From: an uncultured Acidobacteriota bacterium
GTDB lineage: Bacteria; Acidobacteriota; UBA6911; RPQK01; JAPXNP01
DNA length: 64,000 bases
Assembly: GCA_963777605.1 (NCBI GenBank)
Contig: CAVZRV010000027.1
Span: forward strand, 32,001 to 96,000
Direction: 5' to 3'
Part shown: positions 14,157 through 63,245 of the stretch, piece after piece
Layout of the letters: every line of letters starts with the position of its first letter
Numbering within the stretch: position 1 is the first letter of the stretch
Made by a program: the position numbers and the translations under genes
The notes under the pieces: model-generated
The model's database searches: none
Seen by the model: the letters and a program-made list of their open reading frames with translations, nothing else
What the model was told of the DNA's origin: nothing

Positions 14157-14254
14157 GGAATCGGGAATCGGGAATCGGGAATCGGGAATCGGGAATCGGG
14201 AATCGGGAATCGGGAATCGGGAATCGGGAATCGGGAATCGGGAATCGGGAATCG
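14157..14254. repeat. perfect heptamer tandem repeat (GGAATCG)14
   Basis: counted directly: 98 bp. Confidence 0.98.
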
Positions 14255-36337: not shown

Positions 36338-37583
36338 AGTACAGCGTTCATAAAATAGAGCTTCAATGAAGCTACACATGGACTTCGTCCACTTGATATT
36401 TCCAGCGGAAGACTACCGGATCCAGATTAACTTCTTCGAGGTATTGTTCAATGCGTGATTTCAACTCCGCTTGGGAGCTAACTCGCAGCCCACGCAAGAA
36501 GGAGCGCGTCATTTTGCTGAAGAAGACCTCGATCAAGTTCAGCCAGGATCCGTGTTTCGGCGTAAAGACCAGGTTGGGTCGGTTGGCCAGATGGCGTTGC
36601 ATCTCCTTCGAAAAGTGGGAGGGGTGATTGTCGAGAACCACGCGGATTTTCCAATCCTCCGGGTAGGAGCGGTACAGCAGTTCGAGCAGCTCAATGAACT
36701 CTTGACTGCGGTTTCGCTCGCGCACCAGACCCCAGGACCCTGGCCCGTGTGCAGATCGAGGCCACTCAACAGCCGCAGGGGTGCCATGACGGATGTATTC
36801 CGAGTCCAGCCCCCGACGCGCCAGTTCGCCCGCTCGAAAACGATAATCGGCTAGAGTCGTAGCCAGCGCCTGGATCCCCGGTCTTTCGTCCACACACACC
36901 GTGGCCATCGTCCGTTCGCCGACCACTTTCGATTCGTTAATCAGTGCTACCTCCTTGTAGACCACCAGAATCTGCGCTTTCTTCTTCTCAAACTCCGGGT
37001 CCCGGGCTTCCAGAAGATAGCGAATCTTTTGAGGGCGCACGGCGTCCGCCTTCAGGATGCCGAACACCAATGCTTTACCGGCCCGCTCCAGATGCGGATA
37101 TCCTGCTGCGTGGGCATTCCGACGGATATGTCGGGCCAAGGCTGCGTAGGTCCACAGTTCAACGGCGTACCCCAGATCGGTCGGTTTCTGACACGCCAGA
37201 TCCACGACCCACGCTCGGGCTTCGTCGCTGATCGTCGCCGGGGTGATCTCCCAGTGCCGTATCCACCCCCTGCGACAACGCCTTTCGGATACACCAATCT
37301 ACCTTCGTTCGGGTTGTGCCCATTTTGCGGGCGATGGCCGAGATGCTTTCCCCGGCCTCAAAGGCCAGCAACATCTGAGAACGGGTGACGGTCGCATGTT
37401 TGGCCGTCCGGGACCGGGACAGTCACTCCAAAGCCCTTCTTTGCTCTTCGGACAACTGAAGCTTGGCCTTTCGGCTGATAAACGGCATGGCGTCTCCTCC
37501 AGCACATCTGTCAAAATTACGAAACCTCTTCGAGCCACGGCCACACAGCTTTCATTCTATATCTCGCTAGCTTGGGAGTTCTA
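36338..37583 (-). mobile_element. IS630 family element, transposase pseudogene (element ends approximate)
   Basis: ATG at 37488 with HTH region (ISAIARKMG), then WTYAALA, VDERPGIQAL, EYIRHGT, VLDNH, FTPKHGSWLNLIE; stops and frameshifts present. Confidence 0.85.
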
Positions 37584-40514: not shown

Positions 40515-40544
40515 GTATACTAGCTATTCTAGAAAAAGCATTCT

Positions 40545-41465
40545 TTAACCGCCCAAGATTGGGTAGCTCAGGCCAGACTCGGCAACGACCGCATCAATAT
40601 CTCTCACATTCTCTCTAGATAGGGTTCCGCTCCAAAAGAATGGGAAGGATCGGTCCTCGACTATTTCAGCCCATCTATAAAGGCCATGCAGAGTCCTGTG
40701 AGTCATAAGAGACGGAGTGAATATGTAAGACGGATGAATATCCTGATTGACACCAACATAATTCAGGAGTTTTCTCGTTTCATCGAATGGTGATTGATAG
40801 AAATCTTCGTACTTAACACAGCACACATCCTCAGAACGCAACCTCTCCACGGCAATAGAGTGCGTCGCCGCCCACATTAATGCTATCTTTTCAAGTTTTG
40901 AATAGCGATTGTTTCTAATATTATCTCTGAACTTCTTAAATCTTTCACTAAACTCCTCAGAGAATATAACTCTCTCAAGGAATGCGCCCCAATGGAAATC
41001 CCAACCGAACTCTTCCCAAAAACGGCTTCTTCGCACTATAGATGCGATTACTGCCCGAGGATCTCGAACTACAAATACGACTCGGCAGGAAAGATCATTA
41101 ATAAACAGACCAATCGGCATATTAAGCCTAATTTCTTTAAATCCAATAATTTTGCAATTATCATAAACAAGATCTGAAAATTCCTCAGTAACTTGATCAA
41201 TACTGCCGACCAGATGATTTCTAAGAAGCCATTTACTTCGGACTGCTCCCGAAACCGCCTTGTCGACATGGTTTCGAATGACCAAGGCCTGCTCCTTATT
41301 GACATTCGGACGGTAGACAAGATCTCGAGATTCCGGGAAAACTGCCGGGTGCAAAGGTTCGAATAGAATCAGGCCCCCAGCGGCCTTGGACAATATGTCG
41401 GAAATCCATGTCGTTCCGGATCTCCCAAACCCCAGGATTGCGAGTCTCTTCTTTGTCTCGCCCAT
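40545..41465 (-). CDS. sulfotransferase family protein
   Basis: 5'-PSB motif GRSGTTW, FEP, 3'-PB motif VRDPRAVIAS, KYED. Confidence 0.88.
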   Translation of the reverse strand: MGETKKRLAILGFGRSGTTWISDILSKAAGGLILFEPLHPAVFPESRDLVYRPNVNKEQALVIRNHVDKAVSGAVRSKWLLRNHLVGSIDQVTEEFSDLVYDNCKIIGFKEIRLNMPIGLFINDLSCRVVFVVRDPRAVIASIVRRSRFWEEFGWDFHWGAFLERVIFSEEFSERFKKFRDNIRNNRYSKLEKIALMWAATHSIAVERLRSEDVCCVKYEDFYQSPFDETRKLLNYVGVNQDIHPSYIFTPSLMTHRTLHGLYRWAEIVEDRSFPFFWSGTLSRENVRDIDAVVAESGLSYPILGG

Positions 41466-41639
41466 GGTTAATCAGGGTCTAACAGGTTATCTTATCTTCG
41501 ATGACGACTGGTAACCGCCAACATAACCTTTAATCGAAACACTTCACCTTTAGCTCAATTTCTTAGTTCGATCAGCGCGAAAGGCACGTCTACTGGTAGT
41601 GAAACTCTATGTTCCGCCCTCGGTAACCTGCCGCTCCAC

Positions 41640-42569
41640 TCACGGGTACGTTTTGGCTATCCCGTCTTGAAGCGAGAATCTCGATTTCCATCCGATCTCT
41701 GAAATTCGGTCAGCGCGGAAATTTCTTGCTTTTACGCCTACCGGTCCTTCTACGTGGCGGATGTTGACCTTCTTTCCAGCAACGGAGGCTACCGTTTCAA
41801 CCAGTTCATCTACCGAAACGTATTCCCGGCGGCCGATGTTTACGCCGTTCTCCAAGTTCGACTGCATGAGCAGGCGGATTCCGTCGAGCATGTCTTCGAT
41901 GTAGGTGTAGGCTCGCATTGCGGTGCCGTCGCCCCAGACTTCTATGGTTCCGCCGTCTTCAATCTCGGCTACCTTGCGGCACATGGCGGCGGGAGCTTTC
42001 TCCCGACCGCCTCGCCAGGTCCCTTCGGGTCCGTAACAGTTCTGGAAACGGGCGATCCGGATTGCCATGTCGTAGCGCCGGCCGTAGGCCATGGCGGTCC
42101 GCTCGGCATAGAACTTCTCCCAGCCGTATTCGTTATGGGGCAGAGCCGGGTAGGCCTCGTCCTCGGACAGTTCGGGTTCGTCCTTGGTCATGTCGCGATA
42201 GACACAGGCGGAGGAAGAGAAGAAGTATCGTGGAACGCCGGCTCGGGCGCTGGCATCGATCATGTGAATGTTGATCAGGGCGCTGTTGCGCATGATTTCG
42301 CACTCGGCGGAATCGATGAATCCCATTCCGCCCATGTCGGCCGCCAGTTGATAGACCTCGTCGAAGAATCCTCCGTTCGGCCCGTGGACCGCCTGTTTGC
42401 AGTTCTCAGGCTCCCGCAGGTCCAGAACACAAAAATCGTCGGCTGCAGTGGGAGAAAACTCGGGATGTTTCAGGTCGACGCCTCTTACCCAGTAGCCTTC
42501 ATTGACGAGGCGCTTGACCAGGTGGGAACCGATGAATCCACCTGCGCCACAAACCAGTGCTCGTTTCAC
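41640..42569 (-). CDS. GDP-mannose 3,5-epimerase-like SDR
   Basis: GAGGFIG, LAADMGGMGFI, SSSACVY, YGWEK, GGREKAPAAMCRK. Confidence 0.88.
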   Translation of the reverse strand: MKRALVCGAGGFIGSHLVKRLVNEGYWVRGVDLKHPEFSPTAADDFCVLDLREPENCKQAVHGPNGGFFDEVYQLAADMGGMGFIDSAECEIMRNSALINIHMIDASARAGVPRYFFSSSACVYRDMTKDEPELSEDEAYPALPHNEYGWEKFYAERTAMAYGRRYDMAIRIARFQNCYGPEGTWRGGREKAPAAMCRKVAEIEDGGTIEVWGDGTAMRAYTYIEDMLDGIRLLMQSNLENGVNIGRREYVSVDELVETVASVAGKKVNIRHVEGPVGVKARNFRADRISEIGWKSRFSLQDGIAKTYP

Positions 42570-42808
42570 AACATTCTCCTAATGACGCTCGGACCGGATC
42601 TTCCACTGATGGCCAAATATCGTGAGAAATCCAGATCCTGTGTAATCAGAACCATCCCTTTGGCCCACGCCCAGTCGAGGATCTCTTCGTCGCTAGCAGA
42701 GGCGGGCAAAACTGCGGACACTCTCAGCACCTGCCAACCGGCATCTCTCAGGGAGTCTACCGTCGCCGGCGAAATATTCATGTCCGCGAGAAATCTAAGG
42801 GGACCCAC
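42566..42808 (-). pseudogene. DUF5615 PIN-like toxin, C-terminally truncated
   Basis: RFLADMNIS, SDEEIL, LITQDLDF, PSVI, then a stop overlapping the epimerase start. Confidence 0.75.
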
Positions 42809-42810
42809 GT

Positions 42811-43041
42811 TCAAGCGGCCGGAGGGGAAACGATCTGTTCCGACGCCAGCCAAGCCGCATACTGTATTGCCTGGCGGACATCCTCTTCTTCGAGTTCCGG
42901 ATAGGCGGCAACAACGTCTTGAGCAGTCCGACCTTGTGCGAGCATCTTAAGGACAACGCTCACAGTGATTCTCATGCCCCGGATGGTAGCTTGTCCCAAG
43001 CATACATGAGGGTTGATTGTGATGCGCTCCAATCCCTTCAT
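42811..43041 (-). CDS. DUF433 family antitoxin
   Basis: RITINPHVCLGQATIRGMRITV...YPELEEEDVRQAIQYA. Confidence 0.92.
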   Translation of the reverse strand: MKGLERITINPHVCLGQATIRGMRITVSVVLKMLAQGRTAQDVVAAYPELEEEDVRQAIQYAAWLASEQIVSPPAA

Positions 43042-43126
43042 AGTTCAAAAAATAGCACAGTCAACGAGTTCGAGAAAACCTTTTCGGGTTCAGGGTTTCG
43101 AATGATTCAGCATCTGGACGCTGGTC

Positions 43127-43549
43127 CTACTTTGGGTTCATCCTCCCGACAATTGCACGGGTGAACGCCCGGAGGTCGTTGAGGTGCTCCTGAATGATGT
43201 TGTAAACCTGGTGATGATCGACTTCCCAGTAGACGTGGATCAGCATATTCCGAAAGCGCGCCATTCTCTGGAGCTGCTCTCCAAGATCAGGCGTCACCCA
43301 GCCTTCTTCCGCCAGGAGTTTGAAGCAGGCGGCATAGCCTTCCGGGACCTTTCTCACGGTTTTTGCACTGACGTGGTAGCAAAGAGCAATCGCGGCTTCT
43401 ATTGCCACCAACAGTCGATAGCAGGCGATATCCTGCAGATCGTTGTTCCCGAGGAAGACCTCTTCGGAAAGGCCGGCGATCTTCTCCAGCCTCTGAACGG
43501 ATGCCTCAATTTCCTGACACCGCGAGCGAATCAAGTCCGGATTCAGCAT
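43127..43549 (-). CDS. HEPN (DUF86, HepT-like) RNase toxin
   Basis: AIEAAI...FRNMLIHVY (RX4H motif). Confidence 0.9.
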   Translation of the reverse strand: MLNPDLIRSRCQEIEASVQRLEKIAGLSEEVFLGNNDLQDIACYRLLVAIEAAIALCYHVSAKTVRKVPEGYAACFKLLAEEGWVTPDLGEQLQRMARFRNMLIHVYWEVDHHQVYNIIQEHLNDLRAFTRAIVGRMNPK

Positions 43550-43932
43550 TATTCCCCGAAAGCCTCCACTGTTGCACGACGCAAGAGAGGTTCCACGTCG
43601 AGATAGGTTCTCAGAGTCTCTTCAAACACCCGATCGTGGACTTCTTCGTCACGCACTTCGATCAAGCGCCCCTTCAGGACATGGAAGAGGAACGTGACGG
43701 GGGCATCATTCAAGATTCGCAGGTCGACGGGGACATTCAAATCATCCAGACGGGAGTGAAGATGATTGAGAAGATCACCGCAGTCCTTGCAGGATGATTC
43801 CCCCAGCCAGATTCCGACATCGATGTCACGGTTGGAATCCCGTTCCAGAAACGATCCATACAGATAAGCGAATGCAATTCCCGTCGTCTCTTGAATGGCA
43901 GCCTGGATTCGGTTGAAGATCTCGTCGTTCAT
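43549..43932 (-). CDS. minimal nucleotidyltransferase (MNT) antitoxin
   Basis: AYLYGSF...DIDVG...VDLRILNDAP. Confidence 0.9.
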   Translation of the reverse strand: MNDEIFNRIQAAIQETTGIAFAYLYGSFLERDSNRDIDVGIWLGESSCKDCGDLLNHLHSRLDDLNVPVDLRILNDAPVTFLFHVLKGRLIEVRDEEVHDRVFEETLRTYLDVEPLLRRATVEAFGE

Positions 43933-44025
43933 CAAGGTTCTTCAGAATTTCTAATCGCTTGTCCTCTCCATGGTCGCAAGCTGGAAGCTCGCGCTACGGG
44001 GGAGAAAGACTCAACGAGCATCTAC

Positions 44026-44244
44026 CTACTCAAATGCTTCTTTCGGGAGGCCGGACTGGCGAACAATGGAAAGCAACGTACCTTTGCGCAACTCACTGTG
44101 CTGCGGAACTGGCACAGTCACCGTGGAACCGGCCAACTGAAGTTGCATCACCACGTGACTTCCGCGGCGCCTGACTTCGCGAAAGCCGTGTTTTTCCAAA
44201 ATAGCGCAGGCCTCTTTTCCCGAAAGAGTTCGGAGCTTACCCAA
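44026..44244 (-). CDS. hicA: HicA toxin
   Basis: LSGKEA..IL..HGF..VRRRGSH...VPVP.H.EL..GTL.SI; TTG start. Confidence 0.92.
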   Translation of the reverse strand: MGKLRTLSGKEACAILEKHGFREVRRRGSHVVMQLQLAGSTVTVPVPQHSELRKGTLLSIVRQSGLPKEAFE

Positions 44245-44458
44245 CGGCTACCTGCAAGCTTGTCACGTAGACTTCTTCGTGGAGCCTTTGCCGTACCTCC
44301 TCGGCCGAGGCGGTTTCGAAGAACAATTCTACGGCCTCCCGGAGATTTTCTCGGGCCTCGTCGATCGTTTGTCCCTGGCTGGCGACATCCACCTCGGGGC
44401 AAAGTGCGACATAGCCGTCTCCTTCGCGTTCGATCACCGCTGTCAATCGTTTTGTCAT
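44237..44458 (-). CDS. hicB: HicB antitoxin (short type)
   Basis: AVIEREGDGYVALCPEVDVASQGQTIDEARENLREAVELF. Confidence 0.92.
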   Translation of the reverse strand: MTKRLTAVIEREGDGYVALCPEVDVASQGQTIDEARENLREAVELFFETASAEEVRQRLHEEVYVTSLQVAVG

Positions 44459-44496
44459 TTGGTTTGATTATCTCAGGAATCTAGGGAGTCGAGGAT

Positions 44497-44690
44497 TTCA
44501 GTTTGGACTTTGCCGTTCGGTTTCGACCTTCGACTTCGATTTTCGGCTTAGGCGTTCAGGGCTTCCAGTTTCGAATCTTGCGCCCCTGGTGGCAATGCAG
44601 CAATTGAATTCGCACTTCGCACTTCGGTTTCATCGTTCGCCTTCGGAATTCGGTTTCGCCGTTCGGAGTTCCGGATTTCGGGCCTTCGGG
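44497..44690. repeat. two TTCG-ladder elements (44497-44575, 44609-44690)
   Basis: TTCG units with spacer lengths 3,3,2,3,2,3,2,3. Confidence 0.85.
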
Positions 44691-44820
44691 TCGGTGCCAA
44701 TTCACACAATCCCTCCCCCCGGGGGGCAAGTCACCCCCGGAATCCTGGTGTCCCTCCCCAATCTGCTGATATCCTTTGAAGACGCTTCCAATCAAACCCA
44801 TCTTCTGAAAACTCACCACA

Positions 44821-47800
44821 TCAACACACGCTCAGTTCAAGACCATCCTGACTGATCGAGTAGTCGAAGAAGCGTTTTCGGTCATTGATCTTGTTATTGC
44901 TAAGGATCCGTCGAGCATGCCGGGCTGACTCCGATGAACTGCAGATCATGGCCAGGAAGCCTCCGCCGCCGGCGCCGAGGAGTTTGGCTCCTTGGATGTG
45001 GGGGTGGAGTTGTTCCAGCAGGGATTCGATCTCCGGGGTGGTGGAGTTGGGGTCCAGTTCTTTGTTGAGCTCCCAGGATTCGCCGATCAGTTTGCCGAAG
45101 CCGGGCATGTCTCTTCGGGAGAGGGCGTCGGCGAGTTGGTGGGGGAGGGCCTGGAGGTTGCGGTAGGTGGCCAGGGTCTCCCGGTTGCGGTCGAGATAGC
45201 GGCCGACGACTTCGTGGAGGATGTTTTTGGCCAGGCGGCGGATTCCGGTGTACAAGAGGAGGGTCTGTCCTCCGTTCTTTGTCGGCTCGATCAGGTCCGA
45301 CGGGACGAAGTGGATCATGGGGTCGGGCACTAGTCCCGGCCGCGTGGTGATCAGCTTCGTGCCGCCGACGCAGCCGCCGATCTGGTCCTGCCAGCCGCCG
45401 CCGGTGGTCAGTTCCTGCTCGAGTTGCAGCACCCGGTTGAAAAGGTCCCGCTGGGTCGGTTCCCTGCCCGTCAAACGCGCCAGGACCGCGACCAGGACGG
45501 CCGCCATGACGCTCGATGTTCCCAGGCCGCTGCCACTGGGAATTGCCGCCAGCGTGGTCAGCTCGATTCCGCCTCCAAAGTGCTCGAGGATCTGCTCGAG
45601 AGTGGTCACACCTCGAGGCCAGGTCCCGGTTTCGGTCGAGAATCCGGAGAGCACCAGCGCGGCCTTGGCCAGGCCGAACCCGTCGGTCCGGTACTGATGC
45701 AGTTCCTCCAGTTCCCGGATCGTGACCGAAACGCCGTGGTCGATGGAGGTCAACTTGATGTGCGGTTCGGAACAGGTCCGGGCGTAGGCATGGATGGGGG
45801 GCTGGCCGTTCAGGTTGACCGCCACGTTCAGCACGCATCCCCCGTTTTCCAGGGCGTAAGGCGGCGTGTCGGTCCAGCCGCCGCCCAGGTCGAGCCTCGC
45901 CGGCGCGCGCCCCCAGATGATTTCGTCGCTGCGGATCGATATTCTCGGGGGATCAAGCTTCGCTCGGTCCCCCAACAAAATAGTTTGGCTCAGATTGGTA
46001 AAGGCCAGATTCTGGAGGGTAACCGTCCAGTCATCGCCGGACTCGGCGGCGGCGCCGAAATCGACTCCGAACGATTCGAGCCAGGTTCTGGTCTCGTCGT
46101 CGAGTAACCTTTCGACGCCGGTCGAAGTTTCGGCTGCGACCTGTGGAGGCAGCAACTGCATCGCCGAGCCGAGGCTGTGGAAAATGCGGGAGAGCTCCAG
46201 CCGTTCCAGCTTCCAGGCCCCGCTCGTCTCGCCGAACTGCCGGAATGCTTCGTTGAGGATTTCGGCGACAAATGCCTTTCGATCGCCGGCATCGAATCTG
46301 GAAAGCACCAGGGCCAACTCCCGGGCAGAGAATCCACTGTCGAGGCGGAACAGTGAGGGAATCATCGAGCGTAGTTCCCAGGCACGATTGGCCAGCCGCC
46401 GCTCGTGGAACGATTCCTGTTCGGCCAGTTCGGCAATTTCCGCGCAACTGAATCGCTGCGCCTCCCGCCAGACCGCCTTCTCGGCGGTTGAAGCGGCTGC
46501 CGGGTCAACCATCCAAACCCACGAATCCCAGGAAGCCGGTTCGACGATTGCAGGGAACAGCCGTGCGGTCCAGAGGGTCCGCTCCTCCGGGGGAACTCCT
46601 GCATCCCAGATCGACACAGGATCGACATCCATCGACACCATCCAGTCGTCCATCGGCAGGCCGCAGAAGACGATGCCATCGGCAAATGACTGCTGGAAGG
46701 TGTCATCCATCCCATAGCAGCGGACGAACCAACAGAGTTGGCCCGTTTTCGACGTTCCCGGAGTCACATCGAAACAGGCTCCCTGAGGAATTTCGATCGG
46801 TCGATCGAGGTCGAGGCCCACCAGGACGTTGTCTCCGCCAAGTTGAAGATCGGCCCGAACCCGGCAACCTTCCACCCAGGAACGGCTTCCGTCGATGTCG
46901 CCTTCCTCGGTGATGTTCTGGATGCTGAGACAGTGGTCAAACGAGGAGAATCCCTGCTCACGGCTCACCAATTCGGAACCGCTGGTCACCAACTGGCGCA
47001 GCGTGCCGAAGTGGAAGAAGCCGCACCGATTGACCACCTGGCAGGAGAAGGGAACCTCACCAAGGTGCGCAAAAAGTGCTTCCAGATCAGCATCACCGAA
47101 ACGGGAAACGCTGCGCCGGGCTTCCTCCCGGTAGGCAGCAAGGTCGGTCTCGGATCCCATTGCGCAACAGATCTCCCGGTAGAAGTCGAGCCCCTTGTCC
47201 AGGATCGCGGCCGTCAGTTCCGAGCGGGGCAGGAGTTCTCCCGATTCCGATGGCCGAGGGCCAATCAGTTCCAACAGGCGGAGTGCCGTTTCAGCGTCGA
47301 AGCTGAAAATTCCGATATCCAGCAGCGACTTCCCGAACCGGGTAACCGCTCCCAGGCGCACCTGGTCCTCGACGGAAGGTTTTTGAAGAAAGCGCCTGAC
47401 CCGTCCTTCGGGGTCGCGAGAGTAAACTCCGTGATTGGCGGCCAGGGCCGGATCAGCATAGGTTGCCAGGCCGGTCAAACCAGGTCCGGTGGGTTCCAGG
47501 CTTTCCGGATCGAAATCCAGGAGCACGTCGCCCGACGTGATGATCACTTGCCCACGCCCGGTCTGCGGCTCCGGGATGCCCAGGTAGATGGGCAACTGCC
47601 GATCGAACACGGTGACCGGCACGGCCCGGGCGGACTCGACCGGCAGAGGGACAAAGCTCTTGCCGCACGGCCCATAGGGAGGCAGCCGGCGGGCATCCCC
47701 GCCCGCGTGGACGATCAGGATTCGCAGCGACTCGAGAACCTCGAGCCAGGCGCCGCGATCGCCCTTGCGGTCGGAATCCTCCTCCAGTTCTCGATTCAGC

Positions 47801-47985
47801 ACCTCGAGCAGGCAGAACAGGGTGCTGCCGCCGCTGCCGACCCGGCAACCGTCAGGGTCGGGGACAACCAGGACGTTACAGATCCCTGCCAGAAAGCCCA
47901 GTTCCTGCCGCAGGGAGAGTTGCTCGCGGTAGGCGTCGGCCTGGCGGTCACTCGATGCCGTGATGATCAGGTAATCCCAGGACAT
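44821..47985 (-). CDS. fkp: bifunctional L-fucokinase/GDP-L-fucose pyrophosphorylase (Fkp-like)
   Basis: RVGSGGST, HAGGDARRLP, HGVY, FLQKPS, HFGT; GHMP domain PARLDLGGGWTDTPP, IPSGSGLGTSS, TTGGGWQDQ, GAGGGG. Confidence 0.9.
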   Translation of the reverse strand: MSWDYLIITASSDRQADAYREQLSLRQELGFLAGICNVLVVPDPDGCRVGSGGSTLFCLLEVLNRELEEDSDRKGDRGAWLEVLESLRILIVHAGGDARRLPPYGPCGKSFVPLPVESARAVPVTVFDRQLPIYLGIPEPQTGRGQVIITSGDVLLDFDPESLEPTGPGLTGLATYADPALAANHGVYSRDPEGRVRRFLQKPSVEDQVRLGAVTRFGKSLLDIGIFSFDAETALRLLELIGPRPSESGELLPRSELTAAILDKGLDFYREICCAMGSETDLAAYREEARRSVSRFGDADLEALFAHLGEVPFSCQVVNRCGFFHFGTLRQLVTSGSELVSREQGFSSFDHCLSIQNITEEGDIDGSRSWVEGCRVRADLQLGGDNVLVGLDLDRPIEIPQGACFDVTPGTSKTGQLCWFVRCYGMDDTFQQSFADGIVFCGLPMDDWMVSMDVDPVSIWDAGVPPEERTLWTARLFPAIVEPASWDSWVWMVDPAAASTAEKAVWREAQRFSCAEIAELAEQESFHERRLANRAWELRSMIPSLFRLDSGFSARELALVLSRFDAGDRKAFVAEILNEAFRQFGETSGAWKLERLELSRIFHSLGSAMQLLPPQVAAETSTGVERLLDDETRTWLESFGVDFGAAAESGDDWTVTLQNLAFTNLSQTILLGDRAKLDPPRISIRSDEIIWGRAPARLDLGGGWTDTPPYALENGGCVLNVAVNLNGQPPIHAYARTCSEPHIKLTSIDHGVSVTIRELEELHQYRTDGFGLAKAALVLSGFSTETGTWPRGVTTLEQILEHFGGGIELTTLAAIPSGSGLGTSSVMAAVLVAVLARLTGREPTQRDLFNRVLQLEQELTTGGGWQDQIGGCVGGTKLITTRPGLVPDPMIHFVPSDLIEPTKNGGQTLLLYTGIRRLAKNILHEVVGRYLDRNRETLATYRNLQALPHQLADALSRRDMPGFGKLIGESWELNKELDPNSTTPEIESLLEQLHPHIQGAKLLGAGGGGFLAMICSSSESARHARRILSNNKINDRKRFFDYSISQDGLELSVC

Positions 47986-48007
47986 TTGTGAATTGGGGTT
48001 TGGGGTT

Positions 48008-48225
48008 TTCAGTTAGCACTTCGCACTTCGGTTTCGTCGTTCGACTTCGTCATTCGCCGTTCGTAGTTTCGAGTTTCGGGTTTCGGGTTTCGAGCGATTG
48101 GCCGTCTTCCGATTCACCCCCGAGGATCGCGCCCTTACAGGGCGCCAGCTTCGTCAGGGCGCTCGGTTTCCCAGGGTCGCGCTGCGCTTCACCCTGGGCT
48201 GAAATGATCCGGCCCTTTCAGGGCC
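48008..48225. repeat. TTCG ladder plus REP-hairpin composite (left direct repeat of hicBA-2)
   Basis: matches 48806-48957. Confidence 0.85.
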
Positions 48226-48325
48226 GCAAATCGGTTTCGTTGACGGGCATTGCTCACGTACTGAAATGCGTGCCCCCGGCCGACCATGTGGGGAATGTGA
48301 CCATGTGCCGCAGCGGGATTTCTTT

Positions 48326-48550
48326 TCAAAGAAGGGAGAGAAACTGTTCCACGGTTAAGCCGGCTTCGCGGATCAGCGCTCTCAGGGTTCCTTTTGAGAT
48401 CTCTCGATGGTCGGGAACGACGAGGCGCCGATGGGGCGGTGTGGTCTGCCGAAGAATCATGTGGCTGCCGCGCTGGCGATCCAGTTGATAAGAAAGCTTC
48501 GAGAACGCCCGTACAACTTCCCGACCGGAAACAACGGGAAGTCGCGTCAG
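48326..48550 (-). CDS. hicA: HicA toxin with CTG start (absent from the ORF track)
   Basis: hand translation: (M)TRLPVVSGREVVRAFSKLSYQLDRQRGSHMILRQTTPPHRRLVVPDHREISKGTLRALIREAGLTVEQFLSLL*; the CTG overlaps the hicB TGA. Confidence 0.85.
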   Translation of the reverse strand: MTRLPVVSGREVVRAFSKLSYQLDRQRGSHMILRQTTPPHRRLVVPDHREISKGTLRALIREAGLTVEQFLSLL

Positions 48551-48759
48551 ATGCTCACCTCAACCACTTCTTCCGAGATCGAGGGAGGAACGGGTTCATC
48601 GTGTTCTCTTAGACTTTCGAGGTACAGTTCGATGGCCTCCCGAATGTTGACCAACGCTTCCTCTCTCGTCGTTCCCTGAGAGATACATCCGGGCAGAGAA
48701 GGAGCCTCCGCAACATAGATCCCGTCTTCATCCACTTCGATCAATACCCTGTATTTCAT
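48547..48759 (-). CDS. hicB: HicB antitoxin (short type)
   Basis: MKYRVLIEVDEDGIYVAEAPSLPGCISQGTTREEALVNIREAIELY. Confidence 0.92.
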   Translation of the reverse strand: MKYRVLIEVDEDGIYVAEAPSLPGCISQGTTREEALVNIREAIELYLESLREHDEPVPPSISEEVVEVSI

Positions 48760-48805
48760 AGGCTTCAATGGGTTACGAGTGAAATGATAGCAGGGTTTGA
48801 GTTTC

Positions 48806-48957
48806 TTCAGTTCGCACTTCGCACGTCGGTTTCGACCTTCGAGTTCGGCGTTCGGCTTCGTCGTTCGAAGTTTCGGATATCGGGTTTCGAGCAATCGGTT
48901 TCCCAGGATCGCGCTTCGCTTGGCCCTGGGCTGAGATGATCCGGTCCTTTCAGGGCC
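48806..48957. repeat. TTCG ladder plus REP-hairpin composite (right direct repeat of hicBA-2)
   Basis: matches 48008-48225. Confidence 0.85.
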
Positions 48958-49128
48958 AAAACAACAGGAAATGGCCTCAGATGCTCCCCTCAAGCACGTC
49001 CTCCGAAATCTCTCCTGGTGTCGTGTGAACGTCCAGAGCCGCGCTCGCTTCACCCCCGTTCTAAAATGCAGGAACCAGGAACCCCACCGAAATCAGCCAT
49101 CTCAACGAGACAAGCGCGAACGCTTGCC

Positions 49129-49911
49129 CTACCCCCTCAGCATTGGGATCGAGCACAGAATCAACAGGCTCGCAAGCAGCCCGCGGAGGAGCCGTTCCGG
49201 CAGTTGTACGGTCAGGCGGCTACCCAGTAGCACGCCGGGGATTGATCCGATCAGCAAGAGCGCTACCAGACGGAAATCGATGTCGCCGATGAAGAAATGC
49301 CCGACGGCTGCGGTTCCGACCAGGATTGCGGCATGAGCGATGTCGGTGCCCACCAGGCGATCGGTCGAAGTCGCGGCGGTCAGAACCAGCAGGGCCAGGA
49401 TCACGCTTCCACTGCCGATCGAGGTCAAACCGACCAGGAACCCGCCCAGCGCGCCGATTGCAATCACGCGGTTGCGATTGTGCTTCCGGGCAGCTTTGGT
49501 TTCGCCCTGATGACTTTCCCTGCGGACGAGGCGCCATAACATGGAGAAGGCTACCAGCAGCAAGGCCAGACCGATCAACCGTCCCAGGGAGCGTTCGACG
49601 AGTTCGGGATTCCGATGGCGCAACCAGACCAGGAGTTCGACGGCCACGATCGATGCGGGGACACTGCCCAGCGCGAGGTCTCGCACGAGGCGGGTGTCGA
49701 TGGTTCCCTGACGCCAGTGCTGAAACGCTCCCGCAATCTTGGTCAAGCCGGCATACGCCAGGTCCGTTCCCACGGCAACAGAAGGAGGTAAGCCGACAAC
49801 CAGGATCAGGAAGGGTGTCGCCAGCACTCCTCCGCCCATTCCCGTCATTCCTACCAGCACGCCAACCGTGAAACCGAACAGTGGCAACTGCAAGTAATCC
49901 AAGCTTCGCAC
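49129..49911 (-). CDS. TSUP (TauE/SafE) family transporter
   Basis: GMTGMGGG, AVGTDL, GLTSIGSG, VGTDIAHA, GSIPG. Confidence 0.9.
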   Translation of the reverse strand: MRSLDYLQLPLFGFTVGVLVGMTGMGGGVLATPFLILVVGLPPSVAVGTDLAYAGLTKIAGAFQHWRQGTIDTRLVRDLALGSVPASIVAVELLVWLRHRNPELVERSLGRLIGLALLLVAFSMLWRLVRRESHQGETKAARKHNRNRVIAIGALGGFLVGLTSIGSGSVILALLVLTAATSTDRLVGTDIAHAAILVGTAAVGHFFIGDIDFRLVALLLIGSIPGVLLGSRLTVQLPERLLRGLLASLLILCSIPMLRG

Positions 49912-50337
49912 CTGTCACTTACATTATCCGGGGACAATGTGACCTGCCCCGTCCCCCCAGAAGACGTAGAGTAATTTAGCACAGGGGGGTGCGGACTTCA
50001 GAACAGGAAACCGCGCCTGCCCGATTCCAAACGGAGATGGATGGACCGCGGCAAAACGGCGGAAGGACGAGAATTACCTGCCCCGCGGATACATCCAAAG
50101 CAACAGTGGATGACCCTAAGTCGTGACGCTTCAATTCCGTTCAGCAATTGTGCCGAAATTGGGCGAGTGGATGGGGCGCCAGAGAGAAATGGCGAAGGCG
50201 CGCCGACTTTCCAGTCGCCGCGCCTTTCGCCAAGCTGATTCACAAGGAAGACCGATACCGAGACTGCTAGCGAGACTTCCGCCTACAGCGGCAGGTGGCT
50301 ACCGCTGATGACCGGAGGTCGCCCGGAATGCTTCGTA

Positions 50338-51162
50338 CTAGGCCCGAAGGCGACGGACAAAGCCGGCTCCGAGAAGGCCAAACCCCAAAAGCAGGAGCGA
50401 GCTTGGCTCGGGAACGCTATAGCCGGTGATCTGATCCTGCCTGCTTTGATTCGTCAAAACGAAGAGCGTGCTTGAATCTGTCCAGGAGGAGTCAGTAGCG
50501 GCACTCTTCAGCCAGCCGTTTGCCAGCCCGATTGCCGTGGCAACGTTGCCCCCAGTGTTGTCGGCCCAAAATGTCGAAGATGTGGAGCTTGTGCTGTAGC
50601 CGGAATAGGCAGCACCGACATCGTACCCCCCGGAGCCTGCTAGAGTGGAGTCGTAGCTGTCGTAGACCAATTCCCATACAACGAGCTGAAAAGCGGCCGA
50701 AGTGACAGCATCATGGACGCCCCTCTTTTCGATTACATTTGTCCACAGCTTGCCCAGGAGTTCAGCCTCATCGGCCGTAATCAGGCCAACATTCTGAGAC
50801 CCAAAATAGTGAGGCCCCGTTGAATTCGTGTATCCGCTGGGACTTACCGGGAGATAACTACCGGTCAAAGGGTCCGGGGCAGTCGGGTCACCGATCTTCT
50901 CGCCCAACTGGACGCAAAAGGTCTGAACAGTGACGGCAGGGGTCGAAGTGGTCTCAAAGTCGAACATGCCCGCCCCGTTATCGAAGTGGTACACTTCCGT
51001 TCCAACTTGCAGGTATTTGTCGATTGTCTGAGGAGGATCGAATGTGTAACCGGTGTAAGTCAGGTCAATCGAGACACCCAACTCAACCGGCCCGGCGAAA
51101 GTCATCGAGGAAAACACAGCAAACGTTGCTACAGTGAAAAGCGCCCAAGTGAATCTCTTCAT
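50338..51162 (-). CDS. PEP-CTERM surface protein with putative Cys-Gln thioester domain
   Basis: signal peptide; TFCVQ...AFQLVVWE; C-terminal VPEPSSLLLLGFGLLGAGFVRRLRA. Confidence 0.88.
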   Translation of the reverse strand: MKRFTWALFTVATFAVFSSMTFAGPVELGVSIDLTYTGYTFDPPQTIDKYLQVGTEVYHFDNGAGMFDFETTSTPAVTVQTFCVQLGEKIGDPTAPDPLTGSYLPVSPSGYTNSTGPHYFGSQNVGLITADEAELLGKLWTNVIEKRGVHDAVTSAAFQLVVWELVYDSYDSTLAGSGGYDVGAAYSGYSTSSTSSTFWADNTGGNVATAIGLANGWLKSAATDSSWTDSSTLFVLTNQSRQDQITGYSVPEPSSLLLLGFGLLGAGFVRRLRA

Positions 51163-51246
51163 CGTTCTTCCTTCAGAGTCAGCAAAACCAACAACCCATT
51201 TCGCCCCACGCAGACGGGGGCAAACATCACGATCTGAATACCTGAA

Positions 51247-51263
51247 AGCAACAGGTATTCCAA
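51247..51263 (-). promoter_or_regulatory. sigma-54 (-24/-12) promoter of the PEP-CTERM gene
   Basis: minus strand TTGGAATACCTGTTGCT (GG-N10-GC), 84 nt upstream of the ATG. Confidence 0.65.
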
Positions 51264-51773
51264 AACGCTGTCGAGACCGGCAGGATCAATCTTCCCGAGC
51301 CTCAACTGCGATCAGGACTATTACTTCGAGGCATCCGGCTGCAGTTTACACGATCGGATATAAGACTGCTGAATCTTGACACTATGTAACAAGCTTCCAC
51401 TTTTGTGGTTGGTTCTCCATAGGATCACGCTCCACTAATGCAGAAAGCGCCTCCGCCACAGACCCTATGGGTTCTCGCCGGCTAACTCGAAGTTTCGGAA
51501 ATCCGGCCCTGCAGCTTCCGTGGCTGCCAGACCATCGAGCAAACGTCCTCCTTCACACGATATACTGAGCGTTCAGTAACGAGGGTTCGCTGTGCGGCCA
51601 GATAGCAGGCCTGTGGCTCACGCTTTCGACAATCACGGAACCGGGAAAAACCCGGCCCGAGTCTCTCCCTTTTTGACGGCCGCACTTCACAGAATATCCG
51701 TCCTGGGACTACAGGCAGATGCATGCGTGATCAAGGTATTTCGAAATGTAGCGCCTACCGAGGTGATCCTCGG

Positions 51774-52997
51774 ATGCAAGGGACTGAACTCTTAGTCAGC
51801 ATCCTCAAGGCTGCCGACCTCCAGTTGCTGCGCAAAGCACTGCCACGAGCGTCGCATCAAGACTGGAATGGCCTCTTATCAGTCGCGAGCGCGTCCCGGA
51901 TTTCCCCCTATGTCTACACCCGGCTGAGGGGCCTGTGGGACGTAATCCCGGTCGCTGTGAAAAACCAACTCACGGCGGATTACCGCCGGAACGGTTGTCG
52001 AAACCTTTTGGTCCAGAAGCAGCTGTTCCAGATTGTGAAACCGTTCCAGGAAGCCGGCATACCTTTGCTCGCTCTGAAGGGCGTGCATCTGATTGGGGAG
52101 ATCTATCGAGATCCTTCTGCCCGGTACGTCGGAGACGTCGACGTAATGGTCCCCCGGTCCTGCCTTCAACAGGCGTCGGATCTTATGAATACGCTGCGAT
52201 TCAATTCGACCTCGTCCATCCCGGTTGAAGCAGAGGCCACCATCAGTCATCACTTGAAGCCGTTCGTAAACGGGAGCGGGATTCGGGTTGAAGTCCATTG
52301 GAATCTGTCCCGTCCCGCCGACAACTACCGCGTTAATCCCTCAGAATTCTGGAATCGGATTCGAACCGTCGAAAAGGGGCCCCTCAGGTTTCACGGTCTT
52401 GGACTCGGAGACCTCCTGTTCCATCTCTGCATCCACACGTCTCAGCACCATCAGTTCGACATCGGGCTCCGGGCGAGTTGTGACATCGCGGAATTGCTTG
52501 AAACCAGCCGCGACCAAATTGACTTCGACGCATTCCTGGACCTCGTGAGTCGAGCTGGCGCCAAAACTGGAACGTTCCTTGCGCTCAGTCTCGCACAGGA
52601 ACTGGCGGGGGCAAGAATCCCCGAACGAATTCTGACTCGCCTTGCACCCGAAGGTTCGTCGGATCGATTGCTCAATGCCGCCCGCAGCCTGGTCTTTGCA
52701 GAGAAGGCCAATCTTCGCTCGATCTCCAGAAACCTCGCCGGCTTCTGGGATGCTCCATCATACAGCTCGAGGCTGAGGGCTTTGGGTTCGCGGATCTTCA
52801 TTCCGCGCCTTGTACTGGCAAGAGCGTACGGCATTCCACCCACATCAAGATGGATCTACCTCTACTACCCGGTCCGGATCTTCGATCTCATGAGGCTGTG
52901 GGGAGGGTCGGCGCTCCAGCTGATGCGGCGAGACAAAACCTCCAGCGAGATTGCCGAATACCGGGCACTGATTTCGAAGTGGCTCTCGCCCCGCTGA
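51774..52997 (+). CDS. nucleotidyltransferase family protein (NTP_transf_5-like)
   Basis: LALKG..L...Y.DP..RYVGDVDVMV, VEVHWNL, HLCIH. Confidence 0.8.
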   Translation: MQGTELLVSILKAADLQLLRKALPRASHQDWNGLLSVASASRISPYVYTRLRGLWDVIPVAVKNQLTADYRRNGCRNLLVQKQLFQIVKPFQEAGIPLLALKGVHLIGEIYRDPSARYVGDVDVMVPRSCLQQASDLMNTLRFNSTSSIPVEAEATISHHLKPFVNGSGIRVEVHWNLSRPADNYRVNPSEFWNRIRTVEKGPLRFHGLGLGDLLFHLCIHTSQHHQFDIGLRASCDIAELLETSRDQIDFDAFLDLVSRAGAKTGTFLALSLAQELAGARIPERILTRLAPEGSSDRLLNAARSLVFAEKANLRSISRNLAGFWDAPSYSSRLRALGSRIFIPRLVLARAYGIPPTSRWIYLYYPVRIFDLMRLWGGSALQLMRRDKTSSEIAEYRALISKWLSPR

Positions 52998-53096
52998 TCC
53001 GAGCTCACTCAAGCGAACAGGGGCGCCCAACGGTCCCTGGATCCACTGTCCCCCGGCATGAAATCGCCAGCAACGCTTTGCCCTTCGGCAGTTCGG

Positions 53097-54074
53097 TCAA
53101 CTTGCCGGCTCCCGTTTGAAGTCGTTTTCCACCATTTCGGTGATCAGGTCGTCGAGCGTTCGCGTGTAGTTCCAGCCGAGTTGGGTTTGAGCCTTGGTGC
53201 AGTCGCCGAGGAGGATATCGACTTCGGCGGGTCGGAACAGGCGCTCGTCCTGGACCACGAATTCGCGGTAGTCGAGATCGACCAGCCGGAAGGCCTTCTC
53301 GCAGAACTCCCTGACCGAGTGGGTTTCGCCCGAAGAGACCACGTAGTCGTCGGGGCGCTCCTGCTGGAGCATTGTCCACATTGCGGTGACGTAGTCCCGG
53401 GCATGTCCCCAGTCACGACGCGCTTCCAGGTTTCCCAGCGGAAGCTTGTCCGCCAGGCCGAGTTTGATCCGGGCAACGCCGCGGCTGATCTTGCGGGTGA
53501 CGAACTCGTATCCGCGCCGGGGCGACTCGTGGTTGTAGAGGATCCCCGATGAAGCGTGGAGCCCGTAGGCCTCGCGGTAGTTGCGGGTCAGGTCGAAACC
53601 GGCAACTTTGGAGATCCCGTAGGCGGACCGCGGATGGAACGCCGTCATTTCGTTTTGGGGCGTTTCCCGGACGCGCCCGAACATTTCGCTCGATGCCGCG
53701 AAGTAAAACCGGCACCCGGGCACCACTTCCTTCAGGGCGGACAGCACGAAGTGCGTACCGTTGATGTTGGTGTTGAGTGTCGAGAACTCGTCCTCGAACG
53801 AGTAGCTGACAAAGCTCTGGGCCGCGAGGTGGTAGCACTCGTCAGGCCGCACCTCCTGAAAAGCCTTGAAAACGCTGGCGTAGCTCTCCAGGGAAGCCGC
53901 GTGAATCTGGATCTCGGGCAGGATGTGCTGGATGCGCCACATCCGGTGTTCCGGGTCCTCAAACGCCACCCGGCGAACTATGCCGTGGACGTCGTAACCC
54001 TGGTCAAGGAGGAACTCGGCCAGGTAACTGCCGTCCTGGCCGGTAATGCCGGTAATCAGTGCTTTCTTTGCCAT
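53097..54074 (-). CDS. gmd: GDP-mannose 4,6-dehydratase
   Basis: ALITGITGQDGSYLAEFLL, LAAQSFV, SSEMFG, NHESPRRG, GNLEARRDWGHA. Confidence 0.96.
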   Translation of the reverse strand: MAKKALITGITGQDGSYLAEFLLDQGYDVHGIVRRVAFEDPEHRMWRIQHILPEIQIHAASLESYASVFKAFQEVRPDECYHLAAQSFVSYSFEDEFSTLNTNINGTHFVLSALKEVVPGCRFYFAASSEMFGRVRETPQNEMTAFHPRSAYGISKVAGFDLTRNYREAYGLHASSGILYNHESPRRGYEFVTRKISRGVARIKLGLADKLPLGNLEARRDWGHARDYVTAMWTMLQQERPDDYVVSSGETHSVREFCEKAFRLVDLDYREFVVQDERLFRPAEVDILLGDCTKAQTQLGWNYTRTLDDLITEMVENDFKREPAS

Positions 54075-54130
54075 GAAGTGGCGGTAATGTAGCACATCGG
54101 GGCGACGGGCGCTGGGTGTTGGGGGAGGTC

Positions 54131-54210
54131 TGTCACTTCGTATTTCGGTTTCGGACTTCGACTTCGATGCTCGGCTTCGCCGTTCGGGATTCCCGGGTTC
54201 AGCGTTCCGC
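54131..54210. repeat. TTCG-ladder element
   Basis: same spacer register as the copies at 44.5, 44.6, 48.0 and 48.8 kb. Confidence 0.8.
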
Positions 54211-54303
54211 GTTCAAGATTCCTCCAGGTCCTATTTAGTCCCACTAATCCCATAAGTCGTACACGTCTTTTCAAAATGGGAACCTGGGGACAGAGTCTTT
54301 CCT

Positions 54304-54350
54304 GCAGGCTGGAAGCCTGCGATACCCATCAGGCTGGAAGCCTGGACTAC
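54304..54350 (-). repeat. tandem REP hairpins (caggctggaagcctg x2), the upxY-proximal one GTAG-type
   Basis: minus strand GTAGtccaggcttccagcctg, 9 nt after the upxY stop; relatives at 43975-43997 and 55084-55130. Confidence 0.75.
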
Positions 54351-54359
54351 ATTGCGGTG

Positions 54360-54854
54360 CTACAGCTTCTCAACGTCGGCGGCGTCGATTTCGCAGGCGA
54401 CGGCCTGCTGGATGAGGTCCACCTTGATGACGAATCGGAAGCGGCTCTTCTTCTCGATGAGATAGCCGTCAAGGCCGCGAAGCGGACCCCGGCGGACTCG
54501 GACGCGGTCGCCGACGACCATTTCCGGAAAAGGGTCGTACGGGAGCTTGCTGAAAACCAGTGTCTTGACTGCCTCGATCTGGCCCGAGTCAACCGCTGCC
54601 GGCTCATTGTTGAACCCGATGATCCGAACCACGGAGGGAACTTTCAGGATATCGAGCCGGCGCTTCTGGACGTCGGTTCGCACGAAGAGGTAACCCGGAA
54701 ACAGCGGAAACTGGACCTCCTTGTGGCGGTCCTTCCACTTCGAGACGACGTTGCGCAGGGGAAGAAAGACCTCAATTTCCCTTTGCCACAGTTCCTCCGC
54801 GACGACTTTCTCGTGGCGACTCTTGGTGTAGATCGCGTACCAGTCGGTGTTCAT
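54360..54854 (-). CDS. UpxY/NusG family transcription antiterminator
   Basis: WYAIYTKSRHEKVV, FLPL, PLFPGYLFV, KOW motif GDRVRVRRGPLRGLDG; at the head of the polysaccharide locus. Confidence 0.92.
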   Translation of the reverse strand: MNTDWYAIYTKSRHEKVVAEELWQREIEVFLPLRNVVSKWKDRHKEVQFPLFPGYLFVRTDVQKRRLDILKVPSVVRIIGFNNEPAAVDSGQIEAVKTLVFSKLPYDPFPEMVVGDRVRVRRGPLRGLDGYLIEKKSRFRFVIKVDLIQQAVACEIDAADVEKL

Positions 54855-54926
54855 GAGCAAAATCGAAGAGATAATTCAAAGGCACCTTTGTGGCGCCGGA
54901 TCACTTAAAGAGTCAAACTCTGTTCA

Positions 54927-55072
54927 AATCGAGGAGCGAGAATCGGGAACCGGGAAGCGAGAATCGGGAATAATCCAACTCCTGATTGAGATGTGCCACG
55001 CCGGCGTTGGAAGCACCCCATTTCCATCATTTGACAACCATTCTCGATACTCGCTTCTCGATTCCCGATTCC
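54927..55072. repeat. inverted pair of degenerate GGGAATC heptamer arrays
   Basis: 54927-54971 (gagaatc gggaacc gggaagc gagaatc gggaat) versus 55040-55072 (attctcg atactcg cttctcg attcccg attcc). Confidence 0.8.
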
Positions 55073-55142
55073 TAACCTGGTCTCAGGTTGGAGGCTGCGA
55101 TCACGGCGACAAGCTGGAAGCATGTCCCACTCCAGTTTCAGG

Positions 55143-57920
<2,778 letters not shown>

Positions 57921-58048
57921 CTATTGACCATTCTATCGAACTTCGCCAAACGGGGCAGCCTTTCAGAGGGAAGCGCTCACCCCTAACACACGGGCGGGAG
58001 TCAAACTGGCTTCTCCGCGGCGGAGATCGTTCAAAAAGTGAAACTCAA

Positions 58049-63053: not shown

Positions 63054-63245
63054 GATAATGAGCTACAGGTTTCTGGTTTCTGGTTTCTGGTTTCTGGCCG
63101 GCTTCTGGACCGGACCAGTCAAGACAGCCTTGGGTGAAAGGATCCTGCGACAATGGACGGCAGAAGGCACACTGATTCATCATTGACTATCCCACCCGTT
63201 CAGGGTCACCCCATCAACGACTCTTCGACTGTCGTCAGTAGCAAA

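Follow-up and report, generated by a model that had tools for sequence, protein, structure and literature searches.

CGAA ladders upstream of sugar and toxin–antitoxin genes in an uncultured Acidobacteriota bacterium belong to a genome-wide family of compound repeats

The minus strand of a 64,000-nucleotide (nt) stretch of DNA from an uncultured Acidobacteriota bacterium (assembly GCA_963777605.1, contig CAVZRV010000027.1, positions 32,001 to 96,000; this whole stretch is hereafter called the window) carries five short arrays in which the tetranucleotide CGAA recurs at intervals of six to seven bases, and which we refer to as CGAA ladders. These ladders are members of a genome-wide repeat family and not a control site special to the sugar-gene cluster in which they were noticed, with about thirty strong copies dispersed between unrelated genes of the genome. 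What distinguishes them from published heptamer repeats is a degenerate compound array that has a fixed 7/6 register and recurs as a block. We put the probability at roughly 0.5 that the ladders are a passive repeat, that is, an old compound array that arose by slippage, was copied as a block and has been kept mostly where the CGAA strand is transcribed.

The five elements (~80-90 nt, at 44497, 44609, 48008, 48806 and 54131) are mutually alignable and all lie on the minus strand; on the plus strand they read as TTCG every 6-7 bases, hence as CGAA on the minus strand, which is the gene strand. Their extents, together with the E-values given by a covariance model, are as follows.

44495-44584, minus strand: CGAA ladder 1, the most degenerate copy, 38 nt upstream of hicB-1 (E 7.6e-17)
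44604-44689, minus strand: CGAA ladder 2, in tandem with ladder 1 at a distance of ~20 nt (E 1e-21)
48006-48096, minus strand: CGAA ladder 3, ending 22 nt before fkp, which starts at 47985 (E 6.7e-20)
48805-48893, minus strand: CGAA ladder 4, ending 46 nt before hicB-2, which starts at 48759 (E 2.7e-21)
54131-54211, minus strand: CGAA ladder 5, between upxY, whose stop lies 149 nt upstream, and gmd, whose start follows after 35-56 nt (E 1.1e-18)

Four ladders hence end 22-56 nt before fkp, hicB-1, hicB-2 and gmd, as first described; the range given for gmd reflects a GTG start at 35 nt and an ATG at 54074 at 56 nt, the latter being the likely true start. The number of exact CGAA cores amounts to 11 (48008), 10 (44609), 10 (48806), 7 (54131) and 6 (44497), and the remaining units are degenerate (TGAA, GGAA, CAAA), so that the 10-12 units per element of the original prediction hold for three copies and are generous for the other two. 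On the gene strand the cores are separated by spacers of 3,2,3,2,3,2,3,3 bases; the code of 3,3,2,3,2,3,2,3 that had been read on the plus strand is correct and common to the copies without gaps. Both the reality and the common orientation of the ladders withstood scrutiny: a pattern of six units with spacing 2,3,2,3,3 and at most three mismatches gave six matches at the five ladder places, all on the minus strand, and none in any of 100 shuffled versions of the window with dinucleotide content preserved, while the sequence-only covariance model, built from 25 genome copies, recovered exactly the five ladders in the 64 kb (E 1e-21 to 8e-17; next-best match E 1.2). Tandem Repeats Finder (TRF) resolved the ladders just into short, low-scoring pieces with periods of 7, 13 and 26 (scores 30-79, 64-100 % matches).

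The wider family was traced in the 6.73-Mb assembly (53 contigs, 58.8 % G+C, 96.7 % complete), for which genes were called with our own crude codon-bias caller (5441 genes, 84 % coding). A nhmmer profile seeded with the five window copies and iterated twice produced 47 matches at E<=0.1, 29 of them at E<1e-6, on eleven contigs, and 46 of the 47 do not overlap any called gene; the covariance model yielded 40 matches in the genome at E<=0.001. Over ~60 columns, 25 copies align with the common gene-strand spacing 3,2,3,2,3,2,3,3, and a single-base insertion or deletion is seen in only five of them. The spacing code is therefore a property of the whole family, from which it follows that the copies descend from one array. 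The genes that follow the copies outside the window are functionally unrelated and include those for a ROK kinase, a GFO/IDH oxidoreductase, PadR, PEP carboxylase, an H+-pyrophosphatase, a transposase helix-turn-helix protein, a DUF2203 protein and beta-propeller proteins as well as several without a Pfam family. Among the 31 best matches, 17 lie between co-directional nearest called genes with CGAA on the mRNA strand and three between co-directional genes in the opposite sense; five are placed between divergent genes, five between convergent genes, and one at a contig end. Once near-identical copies and the window cluster are collapsed, the co-directional count becomes 10 to 3, and the orientation of the ladders is a bias rather than a rule. 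Of the properties originally put forward for checking, the register and the strand bias hold across the genome, whereas linkage to upxY does not, and the distance to the next start spans 3-1199 nt genome-wide.

This distribution bears directly on the idea that the antiterminator UpxY loads or reloads at the ladders, or that these are anti-Rho elements, in a polysaccharide operon. The neighbouring genes and modules that matter for this and the following points are listed here from upstream to downstream.

54360-54860, minus strand: upxY, a UpxY-family NusG paralogue and first gene of the minus-strand cluster (NCBIfam 'UpxY family', 124.6 bits, cut-off 100)
53097-54095, minus strand: gmd, GDP-mannose 4,6-dehydratase (domain match to GDP_Man_Dehyd)
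48896-48957, minus strand: hairpin module C, copy 2, immediately preceding ladder 4
48547-48759, minus strand: hicB-2, 70 amino acids, intact
48326-48460, minus strand: hicA-2 fragment, 44 amino acids, matching only the C-terminal half of the HicA profile
48164-48225, minus strand: hairpin module C, copy 1, which makes up, with ladder 3, one of the two direct-repeat arms flanking the hicB-2 cassette
44821-47985, minus strand: fkp (domain match to Fucose_pyrophosphorylase and GHMP kinase)
44237-44458, minus strand: hicB-1 (domain match)
44026-44244, minus strand: hicA-1 (domain match)

The names given earlier to gmd, fkp, hicB-1 and hicB-2 are confirmed by these domains, and the upxY gene upstream of the ladders is a true member of its family. 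All five ladders do lie downstream of it, on the same strand and in untranslated gaps of a long sugar-gene cluster. Against this stand the ~26 of the 31 best copies that lie outside the window cluster, before or after unrelated genes, some of them antisense, between convergent genes or beside tRNA genes. The genome contains three genes with a NusG domain, and ladders are found nearby at only the one in the window, the other two (both on contig C8) being without; with one gene in three, the link to upxY does not generalise. Orthologues of fkp occur in six of 40 relatives, and no CGAA ladder was found upstream of fkp in the five relatives with a full-length match, where other short-period repeats are present instead: units of a 150-nt hairpin in the relative G010, and pairs of inverted heptads in G040 and G023, in which long inverted arrays of the CTGACGG and GCGGAAT types (L172, L173) precede fkp by ~90-130 nt. 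The position before fkp attracts short-period repeats in several lineages. A site dedicated to UpxY is thereby rendered very improbable, and the tie to upxY in the original prediction was not sustained; for annotation, this serves as a warning that such ladders should not be read as operon-specific regulatory sites. Two further features were noted in front of upxY itself, namely two inverted heptad arrays at 54940-55071, separated by ~60 nt, which could pair into a long hairpin, and a terminator-like hairpin at 54881-54897 right before the upxY start.

The genome is rich in short-period repeats, in particular in those of seven bases. TRF reported 2337 non-overlapping arrays in the whole genome, and those not fully inside called genes comprise 263 of period 7 as compared to 19 of period 6, 63 of period 8, 24 of period 13 and 47 of period 14. 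The commonest heptad among the 263 is AACCAGG (63 arrays), alongside AAACCAG (20), CGAAGTG (12) and AAATCAC (8), the last of which corresponds to the type of heptad that the omega repressor of plasmid pSM19035 binds. In the autocorrelation of intergenic bases, period 3 was dominant with a faint bump at 7 and 14; TRF was used in its place because the period of 3 came from genes missed by the crude caller. Several arrays of the window itself deserve mention in their own right. A perfect GGAATCG array of 14.3 copies at 14157-14256 corresponds, in rotated form, to the GGGAATC heptamer known from work on Xanthomonas (PMC4692102). It adjoins an array of 17.5 copies of the 8-mer GGTTCCGA at 13935-14070, and both lie in or beside the 5' end of the open reading frame called at 12880-14283 on the minus strand, which probably runs too far. 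On the gene strand, a perfect (GGTTTCT)x4.3 array at 63068-63097 reads AGAAACC; it lies 15 nt upstream of the start of the minus-strand gene 61854-63053.

Part of the clustering in the window is explained by local duplication. The ladders at 44609, 48008 and 48806 are 81-82 % identical and mutually nearest relatives, the ladder at 44497 is closest to those at 48008 and 48806, and the one at 54131 has its nearest relatives in two copies 30 kb away on the same contig; given this local kinship, the five co-oriented copies represent at most about three independent events. Outside the window, many copies are directly followed by a ~95-nt module of two GGAAGC-N4-GCTTCC hairpins (module B) and preceded by the same module in inverted orientation. 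Ten copies aligned over their flanks define a composite of ~340 nt with the inverted ends TGGAGTGC...GCACTCCA, in which two inverted ~95-nt hairpin modules enclose ~50 nt plus the CGAA ladder (for example at L002:2700-3350, L004:4150-4750 and L003:2750-3350). A stricter form of the core motif, CAACGGAAGC-N4-GCTTCC, is found at 31 places of the genome, some of them without a ladder. Module B and the composite ends are absent from the window, so that its five ladders stand without them. The composite may be an element of the miniature inverted-repeat transposable element (MITE) or REPIN kind.

The covariance model also found matches in 13 of 40 relatives, including five of the 15 from the same taxonomic family. 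True homologues with the same code (66 bits) and with most of the spacers also kept occur in the relative G014, which belongs to another genus; the fkp protein of its congener G010 is 63 % identical to that of the genome studied here. In G014 (L047:4190-5150), two inverted CGAA ladders flank a small gene pair, one of them ~50 nt upstream and with GAACCAG heptads between ladder and start, and the pair, to go by its translation, reads like a ribbon-helix-helix antitoxin with a PIN toxin. The other relatives carry simpler arrays, often of perfect CGAA-NNN heptamers (CGAAGTG, CGAAGGG, CGAATGT x5, CGAAGCT x14), many of which are paired with their own inverted complement. In G010 the ladder's 5' part runs on into an expanded CGAAGTG stretch, and this array lies within three to four tandem non-coding units of 354 nt (L045:1100-2360) that adjoin a tRNA-Gly gene, each unit containing a CCCGTTCT-type ladder and then a CGAA ladder, with spurious open reading frames of 462-508 amino acids running through. 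In G014, four near-identical segments of ~250 nt (L183, L184, L185, L189) each combine a CGAA array with a tRNA-like 3' fragment, which ARAGORN did not call as a gene. A neighbourhood of this kind is seen in the present genome as well, in which one ladder is situated 40 nt beyond the 3' end of a tRNA-Pro gene (L017:2885-3062). The G014 segments may represent attachment-site remnants of integrated elements.

Among 401 sampled genomes of the phylum, the code 2,3,2,3,3 with at most two mismatches occurs in 11 with 37 matches, 15 of them in this genome, and no occurrence of the reversed code pattern was found. An aperiodic arrangement of the same spacers is present in three of the 401 genomes with five matches and is thus 7-fold rarer than the real code, a control that does not prove selection because duplicating a 13-mer in tandem would lead to the same outcome. 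The distant matches are separate multi-copy families with other spacers, such as inverted ladder arms in G155 and mosaics of 6- and 7-mers in G158 and G056. More loosely, the pattern CGAA-N2-3-(CGAAGTG)x2-C was retrieved from at least 119 stretches of many phyla, a figure that, taken without a control heptamer, does not show CGAAGTG to be special; only two viral contigs contained the heptamer pattern.

From these observations we infer the following scenario. Each ladder would be an old compound short-period repeat with 9-12 CGAA cores, separated alternately by three and two bases, in which a double unit of 13 bases is repeated about four times and the array ends in two 7-base CGAAGTG units. 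Such arrays would be made and remodelled by replication slippage, which appears to favour 7-base units strongly in this genome and its relatives, and misalignment and correction among adjacent units would hold core and register uniform as the spacers diverge. Once complete, the array would then be copied as a block, partly locally as in the window and otherwise to ~25 further intergenic sites, and survive, essentially by being tolerated, mostly where the CGAA strand is the transcribed one and forms a U-poor, weakly folding leader without terminator- or promoter-like signals. A dedicated link to UpxY or to polysaccharide genes would not exist, nor presumably any other dedicated function; an effect on gmd, fkp or hicB, if any, would be generic, with the ladder acting as an unstructured spacer before starts that have no Shine-Dalgarno motif. 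The statement that slippage does not explain the ladders is in any case too strong, considering the period-7 excess, the perfect CGAA-NNN arrays of the relatives and the local duplication.

The properties of the transcript are compatible with such tolerance. That the window ladders are transcribed is assumed because they sit within a cluster of co-oriented genes. Their sense RNA contains little U (11-12 % T), and in all five cases its folding is no stronger than that of shuffles (z +0.34 to +1.51); the antisense strand folds more strongly than the sense strand in absolute terms, and over both strands the ten folds range from z -0.98 to +1.51. A scan of 43900-55200 for sigma-70-type promoters and for terminators returned one promoter-like and seven terminator-like sites, fewer than in shuffles, and neither kind of site on any of the five ladders; the sole promoter-like site (47992-47963) begins 14 nt below ladder 3 and extends into fkp. 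An SD-like (Shine-Dalgarno-like) 4-mer precedes none of the four window genes behind ladders, as compared to 38 % of 3237 genes and 17 % of random 17-mers, a difference that is not significant.

Several findings weigh against a purely passive repeat. In the window, the start-proximal end of all four intergenic regions (264-369 nt) is occupied by a ladder. Among 23 non-redundant copies, pairwise identity averages 0.81 over the 36 CGAA columns as compared to 0.57 over the 21 spacer columns (Mann-Whitney p 3e-5), rising to 0.95 at the core's second A, and insertions and deletions hardly ever disturb the register although the copies diverge by 18-35 %. If something that reads phased CGAA exerted selection, this would account for core and register at least as simply as homogenisation. 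Neutral DNA would presumably not have kept the code and near-identical spacers in G014 unless it had moved recently, and the code 2,3,2,3,3 recurs in distant families of the phylum. Moreover, the gene calls are crude, and the profile used to collect the copies rewards CGAA, which brings in an ascertainment bias. The same facts on core, register and G014 would also fit repeated correction between neighbouring units combined with recent movement between lineages.

A protein-read RNA scaffold retains a share of the probability precisely because the spacers are less well conserved than CGAA and the register, and to this extent the scaffold idea of the original prediction keeps some support, in contrast to its tie to upxY. 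The transcribed ladder might be a multivalent single-strand platform on which an oligomeric or cooperative RNA-binding protein, or the ribosome with S1 or a cold-shock-type protein, reads CGAA and thereby sets translation or mRNA stability upstream of starts without a Shine-Dalgarno motif. This role, by analogy the one proposed for TAACTGA repeats, is a possible but clearly less probable explanation than a passive repeat. It would be in line with the conservation just described, the orientation bias in co-directional contexts, the U-poor and weakly folded sense RNA, the SD-like 4-mers missing (without significance) from the four window genes, and the persistence of the code across genera and in distant families, and it has a published precedent, as a hypothesis, in the account of the TAACTGA repeats in PMC4679880. 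The platform is at odds with the scattered distances to the next start outside the window, with the three antisense copies and the five between convergent genes, with copies beside tRNA genes and in non-coding tandem units of relatives, and with the absence of a common function among the downstream genes. Somewhat more doubtful still is the more specific proposal that the ladder is the binding code of an oligomeric single-strand nucleic-acid-binding protein, by which a post-transcriptional network would extend a TRAP-like principle genome-wide. If true, a 13-base (7+6) register would have been kept in dispersed copies across genera and would recur, with other spacers, in distant families of the phylum, and unrelated genes without Shine-Dalgarno motifs would come under one network. 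The contrast between shifting the register and changing the spacers offers a sharp experimental handle for telling a protein-read element from a product of slippage.

Two further possibilities involve the toxin–antitoxin genes that are frequent neighbours of the ladders. One is that the ladder works as duplex DNA, namely as an operator coated by dimers of a small protein, for example of the ribbon-helix-helix type that polymerises along arrays of 4-bp boxes or 7-bp heptads; such a coat would repress or insulate neighbouring promoters, notably those of toxin–antitoxin cassettes. The short boxes of the ladder with their 2-3 bp spacers are reminiscent of ribbon-helix-helix operators, and toxin–antitoxin genes are found near ladders repeatedly: hicBA twice plus MNT/HepT genes further down the cluster in the window, Doc and an MNT-type gene elsewhere in the genome, and the putative pair in G014. 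Most copies do not adjoin such genes, however, both HicB proteins are short (70-73 amino acids) and without a DNA-binding domain by Pfam, the alternating 7/6 spacing gives no constant register on a duplex, and a strand bias relative to transcription would not be expected. An operator of this kind is accordingly rated as improbable.

The other possibility, which we regard as similarly unlikely, is that the ladder and a hairpin neighbour form a recombination or insertion site through which small cassettes such as toxin–antitoxin pairs enter operons, comparable to attC. Module C, a hairpin module of 62 nt, occurs only twice in the genome, ahead of ladder 3 and ahead of ladder 4; with module C plus ladder at both sites, a block of ~150 nt flanks hicB-2 and the truncated hicA-2 as a direct repeat. 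The hicA-2 toxin gene looks truncated since it matches only positions 31-58 of the 58-position HicA profile. The ladders of the window also precede successive unrelated, co-oriented genes, inverted ladders flank the toxin–antitoxin-like pair of G014, and some copies adjoin tRNA genes or tRNA-like fragments. Yet the flanking copies are only ~80-90 % alike, because of which any cassette event must be old, and most copies do not flank cassettes. Inverted symmetry was not found in the ladder, which is a direct-repeat array without a palindrome, and no tyrosine recombinase (PF00589) is encoded on the 605-kb window contig (C27), all 26 matches lying elsewhere. An integron attC site in the strict sense was rejected on the grounds that the ladders fold no better than shuffles on either strand and that none of the PF00589 matches is on that contig. 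The genome has nine Y1_Tnp matches, and of these the six loci inspected all lacked the hairpin motifs of module B; a REP/RAYT system was rejected on this count. As for mobile elements in the window itself, two adjoining fragments of a Y1 (IS200/IS605-type) transposase lie at ~26798-27135 on the minus strand, one with an in-frame TAG, and a DDE_3 transposase (36372-37205) is found inside the low-G+C glycosyltransferase part of the cluster.

Taken together, a passive compound repeat is the reading we prefer, and it remains to place it among known systems. The original prediction did not recognise a described element, which agrees with the searches made here: Rfam gave no match at E<=1 in the window region 40000-58000, and on five other ladder loci (E<=0.1) it returned tRNA only and nothing for ladders or module B. 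No paper was found that prints two consecutive CGAAGTG units on either strand (supplementary files being outside the search), and none that joins heptamer repeats with Acidobacteria. The analogy that had been offered is the TRAP site in the Bacillus trp leader, which consists of 9-11 NAG triplets spaced by 2-3 nt. Both have about ten short cores with two to three variable bases between them on a single strand upstream of a start codon; the ladders differ by their 4-base CGAA cores, a period of 6-7 and not 5-6, and ~30 sites before unrelated genes. A search for the TRAP gene (TrpBP, PF02081) gave no match in the 96.7 % complete genome, with Bacillus subtilis as control giving a match, and a TRAP-binding leader was rejected on the basis of both the differing motif and the missing gene.

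Repetitive extragenic palindromic (REP) sequences and bacterial interspersed mosaic elements (BIMEs) of enterobacteria, together with REPIN doublets, are mosaic intergenic repeats. The ladders are like them in being dispersed, intergenic and modular, and in being combined with the hairpin modules B and C in several arrangements. They are unlike REP and REPIN elements in that the ladder is a direct-repeat module without a palindrome, and no link to RAYT-type Y1 transposase genes was found, the hairpin motifs being absent from the six of nine loci inspected.

Heptanucleotide repeats are a further point of comparison. An excess of these in prokaryotes and the hypothesis of slippage go back to Mrazek et al. 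2007, as cited in PMC4679880 and PMC4692102, and GGGAATC and GGGGAYT repeats of Xanthomonas and Nostoc have been treated by Rehm et al. 2015 (PMC4692102). With such long simple sequence repeats (LSSRs), as they are portrayed in those accounts, the present genome shares the intergenic excess of period 7, inverted pairs of arrays and slippage as the proposed origin. The ladders are intergenic in a period-7-rich genome, too, but they do not consist of constant-length, high-identity units as in a simple LSSR: their units alternate between seven and six bases, the spacers differ, and the same array is present at ~30 sites.

The closest published analogue of the CGAA ladders is the group of TAACTGA heptamer direct repeats that MacGregor 2015 (PMC4679880) describes from marine Beggiatoaceae, some Cyanobacteria and Bacteroidetes. 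In the description given there, these are forward-oriented and located before the start codons of unrelated genes that mostly have no ribosome-binding sites, and S1, Csp and CsrA are proposed as binders. Common to both, on that description, are intergenic, short-period direct repeats in a mostly forward orientation, unrelated downstream genes and a patchy phylogenetic spread. The repeat core of the ladders is CGAA, so that they are not TAACTGA direct repeats, and the fact that the last unit of ladder 3 happens to read TAACTGA may be a coincidence. While TAACTGA is reported as 2-6 perfect copies of one heptamer that end a few nt before the start, the ladders are degenerate arrays of ~65-90 nt with 9-12 CGAA cores in fixed 7/6 spacing that are copied as a whole block, and the next start lies 22-56 nt (in the window) or up to >1 kb (in other places) beyond their end. 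Few features of bacterial intergenic DNA that still await an explanation are as common as repeats of the heptamer type, and the published cases (TAACTGA, GGGAATC and the cyanobacterial arrays) are still without a mechanism. To these the CGAA ladders add a case from the Acidobacteriota, in which a compound array with a fixed 7/6 register recurs in ~30 diverged copies and across genera, with cores that are better kept than the spacers between them.

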